DNA from: an uncultured virus (IMG/VR IMGVR_UViG_3300028805_000099)
Lineage: Duplodnaviria > Heunggongvirae > Uroviricota > Caudoviricetes > Crassvirales
Virus record (IMG/VR): IMGVR_UViG_3300028805_000099
DNA: 20,000 nt
Strand: one strand, 5' to 3'
Below, in pieces: positions 7,789 to 18,829 of this stretch. Under the pieces are notes generated by a model that was given only the letters and a program-made list of their open reading frames with translations, ran no database searches and was not told the origin of the DNA. Both the position numbers and the translations under genes were made by a program. Numbering within the stretch: position 1 is the stretch's first letter; every line of letters begins with the position of its first letter.

Positions 7789-9815
7789 TGGTCTCCAACA
7801 GATGCTTCTGCTGGAATAGGCAATTTATGGTAAAATTTAGCTGCTGCATCTTGCATTATTTTTGATACTATATTTGGATAAGTATCTTTCAATTCTTTTG
7901 GAAATTCAGTATTGATTTCATCATGAGTAAAATTACAAAACAATATTTTATTAAAATAATTGTTATCTATAACCCAGTTAAAAAGATTTATTATAGCTGT
8001 CTTAAGGACAATGGCTCCTCCACCTTGTGTTGGGCTGTTTAAAGCAGCTCTATCCCAAGAAGATGCAGCTTTAAAATGATTTTTAACCATTATAGCAACA
8101 TCATCATTTGTTCCTTTATGATTTAATTTATAATCTTCCCAAAATTCTGGAGTAAATGAAGCTTGTCTTTTTTTCCATTCCTCCCAATCCCACCAATATT
8201 GTTTATGCCCAGTATCTTTCATTATAAGGACATATCCTTTATTTCTTACTTCTTTGCTTCCTCTTATTTTAAAAGCCGCTAAACCTGTCATTCCACTAAG
8301 CAGATTTGTAACTAATGTTCTTGCTTCTTCAACAGGTATACCTAATTGAGGAGCTACAGCAGTACCATCCGAACCAAATTGAACAGCAAATTCAATACTC
8401 TTCACTTTATTTCTTAAATCAGGCCTTTTGCTTTTTACATCCTTAGTATCAATATCTTTTAGTTCTTCAGAAAACACAGCTTTAGCATAAGCAGCATGAG
8501 AGTCACCTGAGCCATAAATGAATTCATCAAGTAATTTCTTTTCATTATATACTTCGGCACCTATTCTTGCTTCCATAGCACTATAATCACAACTACAGAA
8601 TAAATTTCCCTTTTCTGCAACAAAACATGCTCTGGTTTCTTCATCATGTGGAAGTTGTTGCATATTAACCATTTTAACTTCCTTTAGTTTCTTATACTTT
8701 GCTAAATCAGTATCTTCACCTGAGCCTGATGACATTCTTCCAGTTGAAGTACCTATTTGCCAATAACTGGTATGAAGTCTTCCTGTAACAGGATTAATTA
8801 AGTTCAAATGACCTTGACCAAAAGAAGTAGTAAGTTTATAATATCCTTGATAATCAAAGTATAAACTTAAAAATTTATCATCTATTCCTTTTTGAGTTTT
8901 AAGGTTCTTCTCTTGCACAGAGTCAGCTTCTTTATTTGTAACTTTGCTAACTGCAACTAAATTGAATCCAAGAGCTTTAAATACTTGCTTTGCTTCATCT
9001 TTTTGCCAATCTATTCTAAACTTTGGTGTTGGGTCAAATTCAGCAAATAAATCAAGCTGATTATCTACATATACCCACTTTTGTAATTTAGGATTTGATA
9101 TACAATAGTCATTCAAAGCTTTCAAAGACTTATCAAGATTCTCTTTGTCTTTTTGCATCTTGGCTTTCCATTTTGTTTCATCTAATTTTATTCCACACCA
9201 TTCTAGATAAGCCATTGCAGGTACTACATCACACTCTAGTTTAGCTCCAACTAAACATTCTTTTTCTTTGCATTCTTTTATTTGAGATTGCATTATATCA
9301 TAAAGAGGAACTACATCATTTGCAGCATATCTTATTACACTTTCATCTAGGCCTCTCCATATAATTTGGCCTCTTATAGACTTATCTATATTTTTATTTA
9401 ATCTTCTTAAGGCTACTGCTTGAAGACTATAAGATATTTGTCCAGGAGGAAACCCTAAATGCAGTACTTGCTCTACAGTCATAGTATCATATACCTTTCT
9501 TGGTATAATACCATAATTATAAAGAAACTGTAAGTCAAATTTAAGATTATGTCCTATTATATATTTATTCTCTAACAATTCTTTATACTTTAAAGGAGAG
9601 ACAGTGGTAGTATCAACTACCACTTGGTCTCTACCTTCAGTATCTCCAAATTGAATACAAAGCAAATTGCAAAGATGAGGATTCTTTCCATCAGTTTCAG
9701 AATCAAATTGAACCATAAGCCACTTGCTTATTTTATCAATAGACTCTTCTACTGAGATATTTTTTATCCCATCTAATTCAAAAAGACTTTGTTGTCCAGA
9801 TACCAAATAAATCAT
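7776..9815 (-). CDS. polA: Family A DNA polymerase with 3'-5' exonuclease domain
   Basis: ExoI DSET, ExoII HNLKFD, ExoIII YAANDV; TGRMSS; motif A DYSAMEAR; motif B R..K...F...FG; motif C HDE. Confidence 0.96.
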   Translation of the reverse strand: MIYLVSGQQSLFELDGIKNISVEESIDKISKWLMVQFDSETDGKNPHLCNLLCIQFGDTEGRDQVVVDTTTVSPLKYKELLENKYIIGHNLKFDLQFLYNYGIIPRKVYDTMTVEQVLHLGFPPGQISYSLQAVALRRLNKNIDKSIRGQIIWRGLDESVIRYAANDVVPLYDIMQSQIKECKEKECLVGAKLECDVVPAMAYLEWCGIKLDETKWKAKMQKDKENLDKSLKALNDYCISNPKLQKWVYVDNQLDLFAEFDPTPKFRIDWQKDEAKQVFKALGFNLVAVSKVTNKEADSVQEKNLKTQKGIDDKFLSLYFDYQGYYKLTTSFGQGHLNLINPVTGRLHTSYWQIGTSTGRMSSGSGEDTDLAKYKKLKEVKMVNMQQLPHDEETRACFVAEKGNLFCSCDYSAMEARIGAEVYNEKKLLDEFIYGSGDSHAAYAKAVFSEELKDIDTKDVKSKRPDLRNKVKSIEFAVQFGSDGTAVAPQLGIPVEEARTLVTNLLSGMTGLAAFKIRGSKEVRNKGYVLIMKDTGHKQYWWDWEEWKKRQASFTPEFWEDYKLNHKGTNDDVAIMVKNHFKAASSWDRAALNSPTQGGGAIVLKTAIINLFNWVIDNNYFNKILFCNFTHDEINTEFPKELKDTYPNIVSKIMQDAAAKFYHKLPIPAEASVGDHWIH

Positions 9816-10327
9816 TTGTCCTTTTGTTTTGGTTTAAATACCATCATTTTATCGTAGTCTATAACATACTTACTTGCTTGAAGGAAATTATTTCCAAGCA
9901 ATCCGTGTATTTCAATACCACTTTCTTCCTCTATTTGAGAAAAAGCGTGTTTGAAGTTAGCCAAAGGAAGTTCTATTTCAGTTACAGTTGTAGGAGTTTC
10001 AAGTTTTACCTCACAATATTCCGTTATTTCTTGATTTCCCCCTAAGCCAGTAACAGATTCATTACAGTTTTGGAATTTACATCCTAACTCAATAGCTGTT
10101 TGGGCATCTATATAAGAAATAGTACTTCCTGTATCCAATAAAAAATTAAGTTCTTTTCCATTACAAGTGAAAGGCACATATATAAGTCCAGTTTTACTAA
10201 TCTTTGTCTTAAATTCAGTTATATCGTGATAGTTGTTTGTTTCTTTAAATCTTAGCTTTCTATAATAAAATATTGTAGCTAATTCACAAGTAATTAATAG
10301 AAGACATACTATTAATAAAACTATCAT
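9812..10327 (-). CDS. Retropepsin-like aspartic protease with N-terminal hydrophobic anchor
   Basis: FLLDTGST catalytic motif, GLLGNNFL C-terminal motif, hydrophobic [12 protein letters not shown]. Confidence 0.85.
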
Positions 10328-10516
10328 TTAACACCTGTGCTTCCAAATCCCCCATCACCTCTATCAGTTGACTGTAATTCACTCACTTCTTCAAACTCAG
10401 CTTTCTCCACCTTTGCAAACACCATTTGTGCAATTCTATCTCCATGATTTATAACGTAAGGCAGTGGAGAAGTATTATAAAGACATACTTTTATTTCGCC
10501 TCTATAATCTGCGTCT
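10324..10516 (-). CDS. dut: dUTPase exon 2
   Basis: Manual translation (I)[10 protein letters not shown]...GDRIAQMV...[12 protein letters not shown]: motifs III-V; missed by the ORF track. Confidence 0.95.
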
Positions 10517-10561
10517 CAATTTTATTATCGTATAAGTTCTTTATCTTATACTTCTACATCT

Positions 10562-11383
10562 TCATTTTGTTATACATGTAGTTTGGACTATATCTTCACT
10601 ATCATTATTGATAGGCAGGGCACTCGTGTCAACATTACTGTCCTCAGCATTATCTGTTAGGACTCGGTTGTTAGTCTCTGAACCCACGTAAATATTTCTA
10701 TAAACGCTTGGCTGCTGATTGTCCTCTTCAGGAGTTTCCAGCAATTCACCCTGTTTTACCACGACTTGACGCGTAATATCTAAATCTATAATTTGTTCAT
10801 AAAATTCTTTTTGTTCATTATTGCATAAGTCAAAAAACTATTCTCTTGATAATTTACCCGTATGCAATGCTGAAATTAATACATTTCCAAAAATTCTATG
10901 TATTAACATATGTGCATCTTTAGGAAGTAAAACTAAATTGTGTATATCATTGTTTGAATGATTTGCGTCTTTGTGGTGTATATGATAATTCTTTGGAAGA
11001 CTCTTTAAAGTTTCAAATCCAAAATATTCTTTTACAATATGTTTATGTAAATCTTTATCATTATCTTGAACACCGCATTCTTTTAATTTTTCTGCAACGC
11101 TTTTATAATTAGGATTACCTTTTCCAGTATTATTAATTGAACGCCATTTACTACTACAACTTGTATTACCACACGTTCTATGTTTATTTATATGGCTTTT
11201 CTTAACAAGATATTTCTTTCCACAAATTGGACATTCTAATTCAACTTTCTAATTATAACGCTTAGAATTATGTTTTCCTAAGCAGTTTCTACTACAACAT
11301 ACATATTTTTTAGCTCTACTTGGAAATACTAATTCGTGCTTTCCACATTCTGCACAAACAACTTCAACTAATTTACTTTGCAT
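10562..11383 (-). CDS. Intron-encoded Zn-finger/HNH homing endonuclease with two in-frame TAG codons (273 aa if read through)
   Basis: Manual translation: CAECGK..CCSRNC, CPICGK..CGNTSC, GKGNPNYK, IHHKDANHSNNDIHNLVLL...H...H. TAG at 11249-51 and 10838-40; no frameshift. Confidence 0.8.
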
Positions 11384-11417
11384 AATATACTTTATTTTAC
11401 AATAGATATTTACTGTG

Positions 11418-11449
11418 CAAAGATACAAATTATTTTAGATATTTACAAA
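11418..11449 (-). promoter_or_regulatory. Bacteroidetes primary-sigma promoter inside the dut intron
   Basis: TTTG (11449-46), 20-nt spacer, TATCTTTG (11425-18), matching the TTTG/TAnnTTTG consensus, about 35 nt upstream of ATG 11383. Confidence 0.75.
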
Positions 11450-11459
11450 TTTTTATTTA

Positions 11460-11719
11460 ATCGTGCCTGGAGTGTTAAGAACAGTTATTCCATGCTTTAC
11501 TGCCAATCCACTTCTTGGCCTTACTTGTCCTTCATATCCTACTGGTATTTCCATACTTATTCCAGTAGGAAATAACCAACGCTCATTAGGTTTAAGTATA
11601 ACACTTTGACACCCTTCTAAATAAGCATATAAATCTACTCCAGAACTCCCTTCTGTAGCATATTGAGGTACTTTACTGTCCTCATATAATTTCTTTATTT
11701 TAACTTTAATATCTTTCAT
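11460..11719 (-). CDS. dut: dUTPase exon 1
   Basis: Motifs I-II and start of III: SSGVDL, PRSGLA, LNTPGT(I). Confidence 0.95.
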
Positions 11720-13366: not shown

Positions 13367-14486
13367 TTAGAGTTTAATATCTTCTTCTTTGGTGTAGACT
13401 CTAGTCTTTTGTTCTATCTGTCTACCTTTTGACCAATTGTCTACGGCAGTAAGGTATCCAATTATTCGCGTCCAATACCTTATATTATTAGAGCCACATA
13501 TAGGACACTTATCTATTGGTGAATTTACTGTATGACCACAATCCTTACATTCACTCATTGGGATGTTGAAAGTAAAATAATTTGTGCCATTTGCTAATGC
13601 AAAATCCAGTATCTTAAGATATTGCTCCTTAGTCAAATGAGCATCCAAATTCACATGACAAGCTTGTCCTCCATCACTGAATTTGTTTATATCTCTTCCA
13701 TGAAGAGCTAGTTTATCTAACACTGATGTATTATCCCAAGGATTGTAAAAGTAACAGTTATATAGATTTTGGTCTTCTGGAACATAATAACCTTCCTTCT
13801 TATCTTTATCATAGAAACGAATGGCTGTTTGTTCTCCTGGAATACATTCACTATTGAATAAGAATGGTCTTTTCTTATCATTAATTGAATGTATCTTATT
13901 TTGTTCTTTGATAGTACCTAAAATAATAGATAAAAACTTCTTATATTCTTTATTGTTAGAAGTTTCTATTCCTAAAAACTTTGCTGCTTCAAAATATCCA
14001 ATTACTCCTATGGTACTATATAGTTTTTTCATATAGATATATCCTGCATTTGAAGCAGTAAACATTCCTTTGTCTTCATAATCATAAAGCATTGTTTTAA
14101 ATGCAATATGATATTTATATACTCTTTTAAGTATATTTATAAGATATTCTTTAAATCCTGACTGAGGAGCATAAAAAGTATGTAAATCAGCATAATCCGT
14201 TCCATTCATAGACTCTTTATACTCTTTACTCCAATCTTGAACAATTCTATTGATATTAAGAGTAATGACATTACAACTACCAGTCATAATACCAGTCATT
14301 CCTGTAGTTGAACTAAAAGTATTATCACTTATTTCATTCAAGACTCTACAACAACTTGCCAAAGACGATGGATTATCACTATTGTAGCAGAAGAAGCTTC
14401 CTCCTTTAGCCCATTCTTCAGCACATAACTCCTTATATTCCTTATCAAGGAATTCTTTGTTGTTATGTACCATTGCCATTGTTGTT
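13367..14486 (-). CDS. nrdD: Class III (anaerobic) ribonucleotide reductase, exon 2
   Basis: LASCCR, STIGVIG, IPGE, CxxC-CxxC Zn ribbon, glycyl radical TRIIGYL. Confidence 0.95.
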
Positions 14487-14639
14487 CATTTGTATTCCAC
14501 ATGAGTCGCTAATTCATATGCGTTCTCTTATGAACTGCTATATATTACTATATAGATTAGACTATATCACCTTCCATTTCTGGAAGCCTCCCATTTCCAC
14601 CCGCTTGAGTGTACTCCCTTTCGGGATAGTCGTTGAACC

Positions 14640-15188
14640 TTAGTTAATAAATTCCCATCTAAATCCAAAAGCTTTTCCATTTCTTTTTATTGCTCTACTT
14701 AAAGTAGATATGCTGCTATTTGTTTTTCCAAGATGTTTAACAGCTTCGTACATTGAAATGAAAATTTCTCCAGTGTCAATACATTTTACACCTTTTGAAT
14801 TTGATGGATGATGTTTGGAAGTATCATATAAACCTGTTTTAATAGCATGAATTGTGTTTTCCGAATATGTACACCATTCAAGATTTAAAACATTATTATT
14901 GCTTTTATTACCATCTATATGGTTTATACACGGTTTATTATCAGGATTTGGTATAAAAGTAATTGCAACTAGTCTATGAGCTTGGTATCTTTTCTTCACT
15001 CCATTTTTCATTAAAACAATTCTTTGGTAATTATCTTTTGTTGTTTCTGTTAAAAGATACTTTGCTGGATATTTCCTAGTACCATTGCTTTTATATTTAA
15101 TAATTCTTGGCAAACTTCTAAAATTTCCAAAATTACTTACTTGATAATAACCTTCATAAGAAGGAATGTCTTTCCAAATTTCATTCAT
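14640..15188 (-). CDS. Intron-encoded NUMOD4-HNH homing endonuclease (I-HmuI-like)
   Basis: EIWKDIP.YEG.YQVSN.G, HRLVA..F, INHIDGNKSNN...NLEW....N..HA; C-terminal NUMOD1-like domain; lies between Q and R (L6). Confidence 0.93.
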   Translation of the reverse strand: MNEIWKDIPSYEGYYQVSNFGNFRSLPRIIKYKSNGTRKYPAKYLLTETTKDNYQRIVLMKNGVKKRYQAHRLVAITFIPNPDNKPCINHIDGNKSNNNVLNLEWCTYSENTIHAIKTGLYDTSKHHPSNSKGVKCIDTGEIFISMYEAVKHLGKTNSSISTLSRAIKRNGKAFGFRWEFIN

Positions 15189-15212
15189 AACTCTTGGTTG
15201 CTAATTGTCCTG

Positions 15213-15244
15213 CAAAAATACAAAATTTTTCTTACATTTCCATA
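15213..15244 (-). promoter_or_regulatory. Putative Bacteroidetes promoter in the P5 region of the nrdD intron
   Basis: TATG (3/4 match to TTTG), 20-nt spacer, TATTTTTG (15220-13), 24 nt upstream of the HNH ATG. Confidence 0.6.
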
Positions 15245-15320
15245 CATTTGCATAGGATTTTTCAGCAGTTAAGGAGGTTTTCTTAATAAATTACTTTATT
15301 AAGCCGCAACTTTTATTTTT

Positions 15321-16438
15321 ACGGGAAACGTCAATGGCTTTATAAGCCTTAGTTCTCTATGTAATTCCATAAACATTCTTTGAAGAGTGTCAATGGCTTT
15401 CCATTCAGGTTGAGTACCATCAGGATAATAAAAGTCTCCAAATAATGCTTTGAAATATACTGAATCGTAGTAACTTACATTTGTGAATGGTGAATTATAA
15501 CTCCTATTACCAGCTGGCTGGTTCACCCCATATATGAACTGTTTCATTCCTTTACGAATGAAATATTTTACATCATGGTCTTTCTTTAAGTTTTTGGTTA
15601 CAATTTCATCCAATCTTTCATACCAATTCTCTCCGAATTCAGAAACTACATAATAATTAAGTGCAACAAAGTAATCTCCAAGAGCTACAGCACCTTTACA
15701 TTGGGAACTTAATAAAAATACAGCATTGGTAACTTGTCCACTGAAAGATTCAATATCGTTAGGAGCAGAAGGAGTGACTTTATCAAGATTGCCTACACCT
15801 TCAGTCATTAATGGATACAATGTAACTGCCTTACAATAATACTTAAGTACTGGAGAAGATGCTTCATCATGCACATAGATAATTCCATCTTTTAAATCTT
15901 GAGCATATTGGGAAGCTACCTCAGGAAACATCTTATTAAGTTGTTCCTTCATTCTATACCTTTGAATGGCCCTATTTGTTTGTTTATAGACTTCTCCTTC
16001 AAGATTGGCAACATTCTTTGTAGTTACATTGGAATTTGCGTCTGTTTCACTTGCAGAAGCTGCATTAGTGTCAGAATTACTATATTCATTCATATAGTCA
16101 ATTCTTTCTTTTAAGAATCTGACATTTTTATGCTCTGACCTATATAAGATATAGGCTTTTGCAGTTTTCTTAAGATTGAAATCCATTAATACATCTTCAA
16201 CACAATCTTGAATAAACTCAATTCCAACAGTATCTATATCAGTTGTAGGCTGCAATTTATTTGCTTTCTCTTCAATTTCACATTGTATCTCCTTAACAAG
16301 GTCATCTATGTCAAAACACTGTGTTTTCCATTGTGGTTCATTAACCTCGTTAAGGGCTTTTAAAAGTGCTGTTTTAATCTTCTCAATTTGATACTCTTGG
16401 ATAGTACCATCTCTTTTCTTTACTTTCTTAATCATCAT
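15321..16438 (-). CDS. nrdD: Class III ribonucleotide reductase, exon 1, with N-terminal ATP cone
   Basis: VKKRDG...IQD.VE..L...AKAYILYR ATP cone; IYVHD, YC, SPFTN, LTFPV. Confidence 0.95.
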
Positions 16439-17718: not shown

Positions 17719-18197
17719 TCTGTATAATTTTTAATAATGTTAATAGCTTCAAGTGTTTCTTTCTTTGTTCTTACTACAAAATAGAAAGTTTTGGACATCT
17801 TCTCCAATAAGCTTACAAATAACTTTTTCTTTAATGGGAAAGTCTCATTAACTTTTCCTTTGGCTTCTATTATGACAGTAATGCCATTATAATCAAAGAT
17901 AAAATCTGGGGTATATTTTATATCTATGATTTTATCAGTTTCTTGATGAAAAGAACCTGATTCTGTTTTATTTTTCCTGTCATACACCTTAGATGTAGGT
18001 TTAAAGCCTTTCCACAATACAAAAGTTGTAGGTTCATATTTAGGATTCATTCCATTTTTTACTAGGGTTTCATATACCATTACTTCAAGCTTTGATTTGA
18101 AATGTATCCCATACTTTACTATCTTTGTAGCATTCTTTATTTTCTTATTTTCCTGCTTGTCCTCTTTTTTCTTCCTATTGTTTTTTCTAACTACCAT
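17715..18197 (-). CDS. PD-(D/E)XK endonuclease (T7 endonuclease I/DUF1064-like, possible resolvase)
   Basis: FKSKLE...YEP...YTPDF...IEAKG. Confidence 0.8.
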   Translation of the reverse strand: MVVRKNNRKKKEDKQENKKIKNATKIVKYGIHFKSKLEVMVYETLVKNGMNPKYEPTTFVLWKGFKPTSKVYDRKNKTESGSFHQETDKIIDIKYTPDFIFDYNGITVIIEAKGKVNETFPLKKKLFVSLLEKMSKTFYFVVRTKKETLEAINIIKNYTE

Positions 18198-18829
18198 ATT
18201 AATTCAAAATTTCTATAGTCTTTAAGAATTGTTTCAGTCTCCCTAAACACTTTATCAGGCATATCAACATTATTTCTTGCATACCAAGAAGGATGCTTTT
18301 CTTTTAATATAAAGTTTCCTTCTTTATAAATTACATTCTCAAATGATTGAGCATCATTACCTAAGAGAATGAAAACCAATGCTCTGTCACTGATGGAGAC
18401 CTTATGCAAGAGTGAACTTACAAAAGGTCTCCATATCCAGCTATGAACTCCAGTCTTTCCTACCATAGTAGTTAGACTAGCATTTAATGGTAATATACCT
18501 TGATTACACCAATTAACTAAATCATAAGGAGGTTTACACTCTTTTCTAGTACTCTTTAATAGTACTTTAAGTGAAGGAGATACTTGTTTCACATCGTTAT
18601 TATTAGCAAATGCTATCCCAGTGGAAACTCCTCTTTGCGGATAGGGGTCTAATCCTAACAGAATAACCTTCAAATTATTATAATCACATAGATTAAATGC
18701 TTTGAAGATATTCTTATAGGAAGGACACAAATCCCTGATATTCAGTCTTTTTATTTCATCAAGTGCTTTATGCAAGAGATTGAAGTCAATTACCTTAGAC
18801 CAGTTGCAAAAATACTCAATCTCTGTCAT
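18191..18829 (-). CDS. ung: Uracil-DNA glycosylase (family 1)
   Basis: KVILLGLDPYP, G.AF, SPSL, W..QGI..LN..LT, LLG..A, HPS. Confidence 0.92.
   Translation of the reverse strand: MTEIEYFCNWSKVIDFNLLHKALDEIKRLNIRDLCPSYKNIFKAFNLCDYNNLKVILLGLDPYPQRGVSTGIAFANNNDVKQVSPSLKVLLKSTRKECKPPYDLVNWCNQGILPLNASLTTMVGKTGVHSWIWRPFVSSLLHKVSISDRALVFILLGNDAQSFENVIYKEGNFILKEKHPSWYARNNVDMPDKVFRETETILKDYRNFELIW

Follow-up and report, generated by a model that had tools for sequence, protein, structure and literature searches.

A predicted homing-endonuclease reading frame crosses the group I ribozyme of a dUTPase-gene intron in a crAss-like phage

We analysed a stretch of 20,000 nucleotides from an uncultured virus of the Crassvirales (IMG/VR record IMGVR_UViG_3300028805_000099), referred to here as the window, in which the dUTPase gene (dut) is interrupted by a putative group I intron. 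The intron carries an open reading frame (ORF) for a predicted homing endonuclease, which contains two in-frame TAG codons and continues through the ribozyme itself. All the substantial ORFs of the window are located on the minus strand, as are all the features described below, and they constitute a replication and nucleotide-metabolism module with genes for a family A DNA polymerase, dUTPase and the anaerobic ribonucleotide reductase proteins NrdD and NrdG. The nearest named phages belong to the Crassvirales: the polymerase is 35-42% identical to those of Kolpuevirus and other crAss-like phages, while the ribozyme part of the intron shows 78-81% identity to crAssphage, cr50_1 and cr1_1. The DNA of the window occurs in sheep and bovine gut metagenome runs.

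The first exon of dut (11460..11719) ends with ...GGCACGAT and matches positions 3-64 of the Pfam dUTPase profile; its last six nucleotides, CACGAU, provide the 5' strand of P1. The second exon (10324..10516, stop codon included) starts with AGACGCAG... and matches profile positions 69-129 (10516-10327), and the GACGC at its start pairs with the P10 strand. The 943-nt intron lying between them (10517..11459) runs from UAAAUAA... to ...AAAAUUG, with the terminal G at 10517. A TAA in the frame of exon 1, two codons into the intron (11453..11455), halts the ribosomes arriving from exon 1, and the exon-1 ORF including this codon is listed as 11453..11719. Joining 11460 to 10516 restores a dUTPase of 150 amino acids with the motif GTIDADYRGE, collinear with the uninterrupted gene of the relative G002, a 72-kb record with about 91% DNA identity to the window and a polymerase 96% identical at the protein level. 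Since the restored dUTPase, the intronless allele of G002 and the joint of an RNA-library contig agree, the ends of the intron can be regarded as fixed. The presence of the intron in one and its absence from the other of two 91%-identical phages is an indirect sign of homing. The nearest record, the 10-kb fragment G001, is identical to the window across all 1451 nt compared in the intron region and is therefore uninformative on conservation.

Synonymous differences between the intron-bearing dut (window 11440-11470 and 10490-10520) and the intronless dut (G002 50239-50308) were seen to cluster at the insertion site, as would be expected under co-conversion or divergence of the endonuclease target.

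Ligation of the exons in RNA is moderately supported by run X15, a sheep gut metatranscriptome, in which one contig of 193 nt with a depth of 9 joins 10516 to 11460. The contig matches 165 nt of exon 2 (10352-10516) without a mismatch and skips exactly 943 nt. The exact 10516|11460 joint was not found in the DNA runs X3, X4 and X10; intronless alleles do occur in X10 DNA, but they carry 3-8 replaced letters at the joint.

The ribozyme was located by a local search with Rfam model RF00028, which returned a match at 10811-10572 with 59.5 bits against a gathering score of 50 (E 3.3e-14). A scan of the whole window with Rfam gave no RF00028 match at the gathering threshold, presumably owing to speed filters, whereas local scans found both introns of the window, the second of which is described below. 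The internal guide sequence, GCGTC-AA-GTCGTG (10772-10760), encodes residues T204 to V208 of the endonuclease frame and comprises the P10 strand GCGUC (10772-10768), pairing with the GACGC of exon 2, and the P1 strand GUCGUG (10765-10760), pairing with the CACGAU of exon 1 with a U.G pair at the splice site. These pairings, here and in the related loci, were read by eye. The 5' strands of P3 (10754-10747) and P4 (10743-10738) were placed by the Rfam alignment and are followed by Q (10718-10710), R (10684-10671), the 3' strand of P3 (10621-10616), P8 (10614-10599), S (10596-10585), the P9 hairpin (10582-10554), whose loop holds the TGA of the endonuclease ORF, and the P9.1 hairpin (10552-10530). 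A minimum-energy fold recovers P3-P9 (z -2.66). The P1 and P2 hairpins that Rfam assigned on 10811-10780 were rejected as a model artefact.

Both strands of the guide sequence covary with the exon ends among the related loci L026, L028, L087, L088/L098, L091 and L095. Examples are AACGAU/GUCGUU, GACGAU/GUCGUC, AACCAU/GUGGUU, AACCGU/GCGGUU and AACCUU/GAGGUU for P1, and GAUGC/GCAUC, GAUGA/UCAUC and GACCAG/CUGGUC for P10. The loop of P1 houses the endonuclease ORF, which takes up the interval of about 690 nt that separates the 5' splice site from the guide sequence; in L098, a copy of the dut intron without an endonuclease, the P1 loop measures only 7 nt. Two copies of the dut intron, L098 and L099, have lost the endonuclease ORF and a third locus, L089, carries a frameshifted one; as judged from their sequences, these loci together show what would be stages of the homing-endonuclease life cycle.

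In run X15, contigs at about 1000-fold depth share with the window only a part of about 50 nt of the P3-P6 core (10701-10759) and then diverge; this metatranscriptome is rich in other group I introns that have the same core. The family of endonuclease and ribozyme is also found on two large contigs, L030 (392,823 nt) and L091 (344,580 nt), whose size of 345-393 kb is in keeping with that of the huge gut phages known as 'Jug', in which group I introns are reportedly numerous (PMC12363816).

The endonuclease ORF (10562..11383) starts with an ATG at 11383 and, with TAG read as a sense codon, extends over 273 codons, encoding two zinc ribbons, an HNH_3 domain, a helical C-terminal segment and a ribozyme-coded tail. 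Residues 129-159 match PF13392 (HNH_3) with 33.5 bits against a cut-off of 24.8 (E 3.3e-8), and the protein is predicted to be a homing endonuclease of the HNH_3 type. The 273 codons contain no TAA, TGA or frameshift, which was equalled in 0 of 5000 shuffles. No significant hairpin was detected over the start codon (z -0.36).

The initial annotation had placed the second TAG just upstream of the guide sequence and had described the frame behind it as open across the guide sequence and the core, down to the TGA. Both statements were confirmed. The second TAG (10840-10838) lies 66 nt 5' of the guide sequence, and the frame is open for 91 codons, from 10837 to the closing TGA at 10564-10562, with 6 and 16 stops in the other two frames. 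Mononucleotide shuffles of this stretch were open in 0.0006 of the trials when any stop was counted and in 0.0046 when TAA and TGA only were considered. The overlap of the ORF with the ribozyme amounts to about 210 nt and includes the guide sequence and P3-P9; the frame runs on through the ribozyme because the ORF has no stop codon of its own ahead of it.

The arrangement is shared by the whole intron family, including crAssphage with its standard code. A locus search returned 7 relatives in viral contigs and 17 in metagenome contigs, none of them another TAG-recoded carrier, and all loci read that carry an endonuclease have the frame open. The annotated HNH genes of crAssphage (gp35), cr50_1 and cr1_1, which use the standard code, pass through the core in this same frame. 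The end of the ORF differs among the members, falling after the 5' strand of P8, right after S, or in P9.

A protein search returned 380 homologues, and among the 120 listed, 97 align over 92% or more of the query; alignment of 16 sequences, that of the window included, revealed 63 identical positions. The C-terminal pattern GELLE..QQPS..TSALP is present in 16 of the 24 homologue sequences read, and the full motif, VVVKQGELLE..QQPS..GSETN.RV..DSN.DTSALP, corresponds to the guide sequence, P3, P4, Q, R, the 3' strand of P3 and P8 read as protein. AlphaFold returned predicted local distance difference test (pLDDT) values of 71-94 for most of residues 1-208, below 50 for residues 209-273 and of 26-34 for residues 211-273. 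Residues 205-209 track the pairing requirements of P1 and P10. In eight homologues (P0090, P0098, P0100, P0102, P0112, P0120, P0122 and P0123) the helical segment, ..FF..CN.EQK.FY..IIDLDITKQ, is kept and then followed by unrelated, short AT-rich tails, and at locus L094 the 150 nt inspected beyond the end of the ORF showed no evident dut exon or ribozyme. These genes may be free-standing copies or copies with a decayed ribozyme. From these observations we conclude that the folded enzyme ends near residue 208 and that the tail, predicted to be disordered, is a by-product.

The two TAG codons were then examined in the context of this protein. The first, codon 45 (11251-11249), falls in the linker between the two zinc ribbons, where the homologues have K, T, E or Q. 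The second, codon 182, is located inside a predicted helix (residues 180-185, pLDDT about 90) in a segment (pLDDT 80-90) that is also conserved in homologues lacking the ribozyme-coded tail. In the two closest relatives read as DNA this codon is CAA (L026) or CAG (L084), both Gln, and elsewhere it is variable (T, L, D, E, V or A). The initial annotation had set beforehand, as a test that could refute its proposal, the conservation of both the TAG and the open frame in related introns. The open frame proved to be a property of the family, whereas the TAG positions did not: a TAG occurred at codon 182 in 0 of 14 other loci read and at codon 45 in 0 of 11 of those. Within the phage population, the second TAG is retained in a strain variant of about 1% divergence (one contig of run X10), and strain variants retain the 273-codon frame. 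The protein database is blind to the difference between TAG and CAG, so that a Gln in database homologues is uninformative on the codon; the protein collection does contain the exact translation of the window ORF with TAG as Gln, which reflects either gene calling with TAG as Gln or a variant with a Gln codon. A member of this cluster with 273 residues is encoded on a contig of 128,210 nt, which makes it probable that a complete genome of this phage exists.

In-frame TAGs amount to 2 of the 273 endonuclease codons (beside 6 CAA and 3 CAG), against 0 of 5769 codons in the 25 other genes of the window. The same endonuclease family occurs in phages that appear to be TGA-recoded (records G008, G009 and G010 for the loci L026/L027 and L028), with a single in-frame TGA at the near-invariant Trp80 in L026/L027 and a single one at codon 156, a variable site, in L028. 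The TAGs of the window are best read as recoded sense codons, rather than as signs of decay or as a gate placed at a given position.

The genetic code of the lineage was assessed in G002. Six of its late ORFs, of 1574, 1161, 634, 2407, 1394 and 3434 codons, are open when TAG is taken as sense and contain 23-69 TAGs each, 254 in 10604 codons, while the early region at 32-72 kb has almost none. When these ORFs were compared with those of the standard-code relatives G004 and G006, in weak alignments of mostly 20-33% identity, Gln was the residue most enriched opposite the TAGs (18 of 148 aligned positions, 3.8-fold over a background of 3.2%, p 1.7e-6), and Gln is the most likely amino acid encoded. 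For crAss-like phages, a decoding of TAG as Gln that is confined to late genes has been described (PMC7886860). No suppressor tRNA with a CUA anticodon was found in G002 (72 kb, estimated to be 56% complete, with a tRNA-Met only), G004 or G006, and no tRNA was found in the window; recoding and detectable suppressors need not coincide (Yutin et al., PMC7886860). The lineage thus reads TAG as an amino acid in late genes only, as shown for the close relative G002 and as we infer for the phage of the window.

The code was also observed to switch over a short distance, the window and G002 being TAG-recoded, G004 (polymerase 69% identical) and G006 (55%) standard, and G010, the record of L028, TGA-recoded, with ORFs of up to 3387 codons that are open only with TGA as sense. 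In G004, ARAGORN predicted a tRNA with a four-base anticodon (tttg) at 57597-57672, beside a tRNA-Thr and apart from the main tRNA cluster.

Taken as a whole, the data make it probable that a TAG-recoded crAss-like phage of the ruminant gut carries a mobile group I intron in its dUTPase gene, with an endonuclease in the P1 loop that is read through the core, TAGs that are ordinary recoded codons, and an enzyme made late. The TAGs would be codons of the CAG-to-TAG type, tolerated or favoured in a gene translated late. As long as TAG acts as a stop, ribosomes that start at the endonuclease ATG finish at codon 45 and cannot reach the guide sequence or the core. In this state no endonuclease would be made, the guide sequence and the core would be free of ribosomes, the intron would splice and dUTPase would be produced. 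Once TAG is decoded, the full-length endonuclease could be made and ribosomes would traverse P1 and P3-P9, and the enzyme can thus probably be made only late in infection. The crossing would affect dut only on RNA that is still unspliced, so that translation from the precursor or from the excised intron would decide the outcome. The second TAG would contribute nothing beyond the first.

Several observations weigh against this interpretation. The recoding of the window phage is carried over from G002, whose 72-kb record has no suppressor tRNA, and the TAG density of the endonuclease, 0.7% of the codons, is below the 2.4% of the late genes. The endonuclease of the second intron, in nrdD, is without TAG, hence recoded stops are not a rule for the intron endonucleases of this phage. 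The support for splicing consists of a single contig from one run and one study, the RNA library may contain DNA, and intronless DNA alleles exist.

A broader proposal is that in this intron family translation of the endonuclease requires ribosomes to unwind P1 and the entire core, and that recoded stops, TAG here and TGA in L026 and L028, resolve the conflict, making the splicing of an early gene dependent on which code is in force. We consider this rather unlikely. If true, the recoded stops would shield the ribozyme as long as the early gene needs splicing, and the code switch would release endonuclease synthesis and shut down further splicing of dut, adding a new layer of control to code switching.

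A narrower form of this idea, in line with the initial annotation, regards the second TAG as a purpose-built gate in front of the guide sequence, where termination protects the ribozyme and read-through lowers dut splicing, so that dUTPase output is set by the state of the code. The TAG is indeed close to the guide sequence, with the frame open behind it to 10562, the lineage is TAG-recoded, and the codon is retained in the X10 variant. In the T4 td intron, ribosomes on core sequences cause a splicing defect (Gibb and Edgell 2010, as described in PMC3073962), and TAG is absent from the nrdD endonuclease, the ORF of which terminates ahead of P7, although this gives one case on each side. However, the first TAG already halts every ribosome, ending translation about 560 nt earlier. 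Under the standard code no ORF of at least 30 amino acids can start between the two TAGs, the 113 codons that follow the first being devoid of a start codon. In addition, the second TAG lies in a confidently folded helix, in a segment conserved also where the ribozyme-coded tail is missing, and aligns with CAA or CAG in the closest relatives and with a TAG in none of the 14 other loci, while standard-code members of the family have no gate at all. The excised intron might also serve as the template for translation, in which case ribosomes crossing the core would leave dut untouched. A dedicated gate is therefore unlikely, and the earlier proposal that termination at TAG keeps ribosomes off the ribozyme holds for ribosomes coming from the endonuclease ATG, with the first TAG, and not the second, acting in the first place.

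Alternatively, the endonuclease might be a decaying pseudogene with two nonsense mutations, in which only the ribozyme is still maintained and the open frame past the second TAG is a remnant. Endonuclease decay is known in the family, from the frameshifted L089 and from L098 and L099, where the ORF is lost; the standard code splits the ORF into 44, 136 and 91 codons, the middle piece having no usable start, and suppressor tRNAs were not found in G002, G004 and G006. Both interruptions, however, are TAG, the sole codon that the lineage decodes, and both fall at variable positions with Gln in relatives. Decay would also have to leave 273 codons of AT-rich sequence free of TAA, TGA and frameshifts, a result that no shuffle matched, with 63 positions identical across the 16 aligned sequences and the whole frame kept in strain variants. 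We thus regard a pseudogene as quite unlikely in comparison with a functional, recoded endonuclease.

That the tail (residues 209-273) is instead a selected functional domain, for instance maturase-like or DNA-binding, with protein selection keeping the frame open, is very improbable, as its high conservation tracks the RNA elements (guide sequence, P3, P4, Q, R and S), residues 205-209 vary with the P1 and P10 pairing, a folded domain was rejected on account of pLDDT values below 35, members differ in whether the ORF stops past P8, past S or within P9, and eight homologues have unrelated AT-rich tails, even though length differences among members preserve the frame, which is open in every endonuclease-bearing locus read, the protein search being biased to frame-keeping proteins.

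The preferred interpretation, a mobile intron with a recoded, late-made endonuclease, was compared with known systems. In phage T4, ribosomes on core elements impair splicing of the td intron, and translation of its endonuclease I-TevI is delayed to late infection (PMC3073962). The two systems share a phage group I intron in a nucleotide-metabolism gene and an endonuclease ORF that overlaps core elements. However, in T4 the overlap extends over 20 nt (P6a/P7), compared with about 210 nt from the guide sequence through P9 in the window, and the ORF is located in P6 rather than in P1. The delay in T4 is achieved by a late promoter and a hairpin at the ribosome-binding site, whereas the proposal for the window relies on codons that would be readable only after the code switch.

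The extension of intron ORFs into the core by loss of stop codons has been described as 'core creep' (Edgell, Chalamcharla and Belfort 2011, PMC3073962), and Table 1 of that review includes ORFs inserted in P1 in the Synechocystis tRNA-fMet intron and the Physarum large-subunit intron. The largest overlap in the table is 81 nt, while that of the window is about 210 nt and that of relatives whose ORF ends with ...EDKELLG is up to about 250 nt, with every core helix crossed. The intron family described here is an extreme case of 'core creep', and its overlap of about 210-250 nt between a coding frame and a group I ribozyme is the most extreme found in our literature search.

The initial annotation knew of no described case, and a claim that none exists is too strong. 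Borges et al. (bioRxiv 10.1101/2021.08.26.457843) reported, for the TGA-recoded 'Agate' phages, an early gene whose group I intron encodes a recoded endonuclease, and proposed that its recoded stops delay production to late infection. The likeness lies in an early-gene intron endonuclease with in-frame recoded stops; the difference is that in 'Agate' phages, which form another clade, TGA is read as Trp, whereas the window has TAG, probably Gln, in a crAss-like phage, and its ORF covers the whole core. The passage of that paper on the endonuclease is silent on any overlap of ORF and ribozyme and on an effect on splicing. In crAss-like phages of the Zeta group, ORFs within introns of PolB carry TGA codons requiring suppression (Yutin et al. 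2021, PMC7886860). These phages, too, have recoding restricted to late genes as presented there, but their host gene is itself recoded, whereas in the window dut and its neighbours are TAG-free and TAG is found only in the intron ORF.

The closest counterpart is the dut intron of crAssphage, whose HNH endonuclease gp35 is annotated in GenBank (BK010471) and discussed by Rossi et al. 2020 (PMC7551546). It belongs to the same intron family and shares host gene, motif and read-through frame, its endonuclease being 41% identical. It differs in having a standard code, no TAG and no 27-residue segment around codon 182, and its insertion site, as read by eye, is a few nucleotides away. The overlap of ORF and ribozyme is unmentioned in the passages of Rossi et al. 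on this intron. Our literature search, which did not extend to supplements, found no description of a whole-core overlap in this family or of a coupling between splicing and recoding. The intron of the window belongs to a known kind, that of mobile group I introns with an endonuclease probably recoded for late expression; its unusual aspects are the family-wide ORF across the whole ribozyme and a possible link between the state of the code and splicing.

The family provides a natural system for studying the conflict between ribosome and ribozyme, occurring in abundant gut phages that include crAssphage. An ORF with codons readable only after the switch would offer a compact test both of the late-timing hypothesis of Borges et al. 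and of the protection of splicing. As to annotation, gene calling with the standard code breaks up such ORFs or predicts them wrongly, and what looks like a conserved 'C-terminal motif' is in fact a translation of the ribozyme.

Finally, nrdD was also found to be split, by an insertion at 14471-15320 that is absent from G002, with exons at 15299-16438 and 13367-14479. A local scan gave a weaker RF00028 match at 14711-14538 (33 bits, E 2e-6). The ORF within the insertion (15188-14640) encodes NUMOD4 and HNH_3 domains and, with no in-frame TAG, ends at a TAA immediately before the R element. The insertion is, as predicted from these matches, a second mobile group I intron.

Two further genes of the window deserve mention. 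Just downstream of dut, the region 9812-10327 encodes a protein of 171 amino acids with a hydrophobic N-terminus and matches to PF13650 and PF13975, both families of retroviral-type aspartyl proteases; such a gene is unusual in a phage replication module. The gene at 18191-18829 is the only one of 25 window genes with a TAG stop, and its read-through frame adds 18 codons into the next gene.

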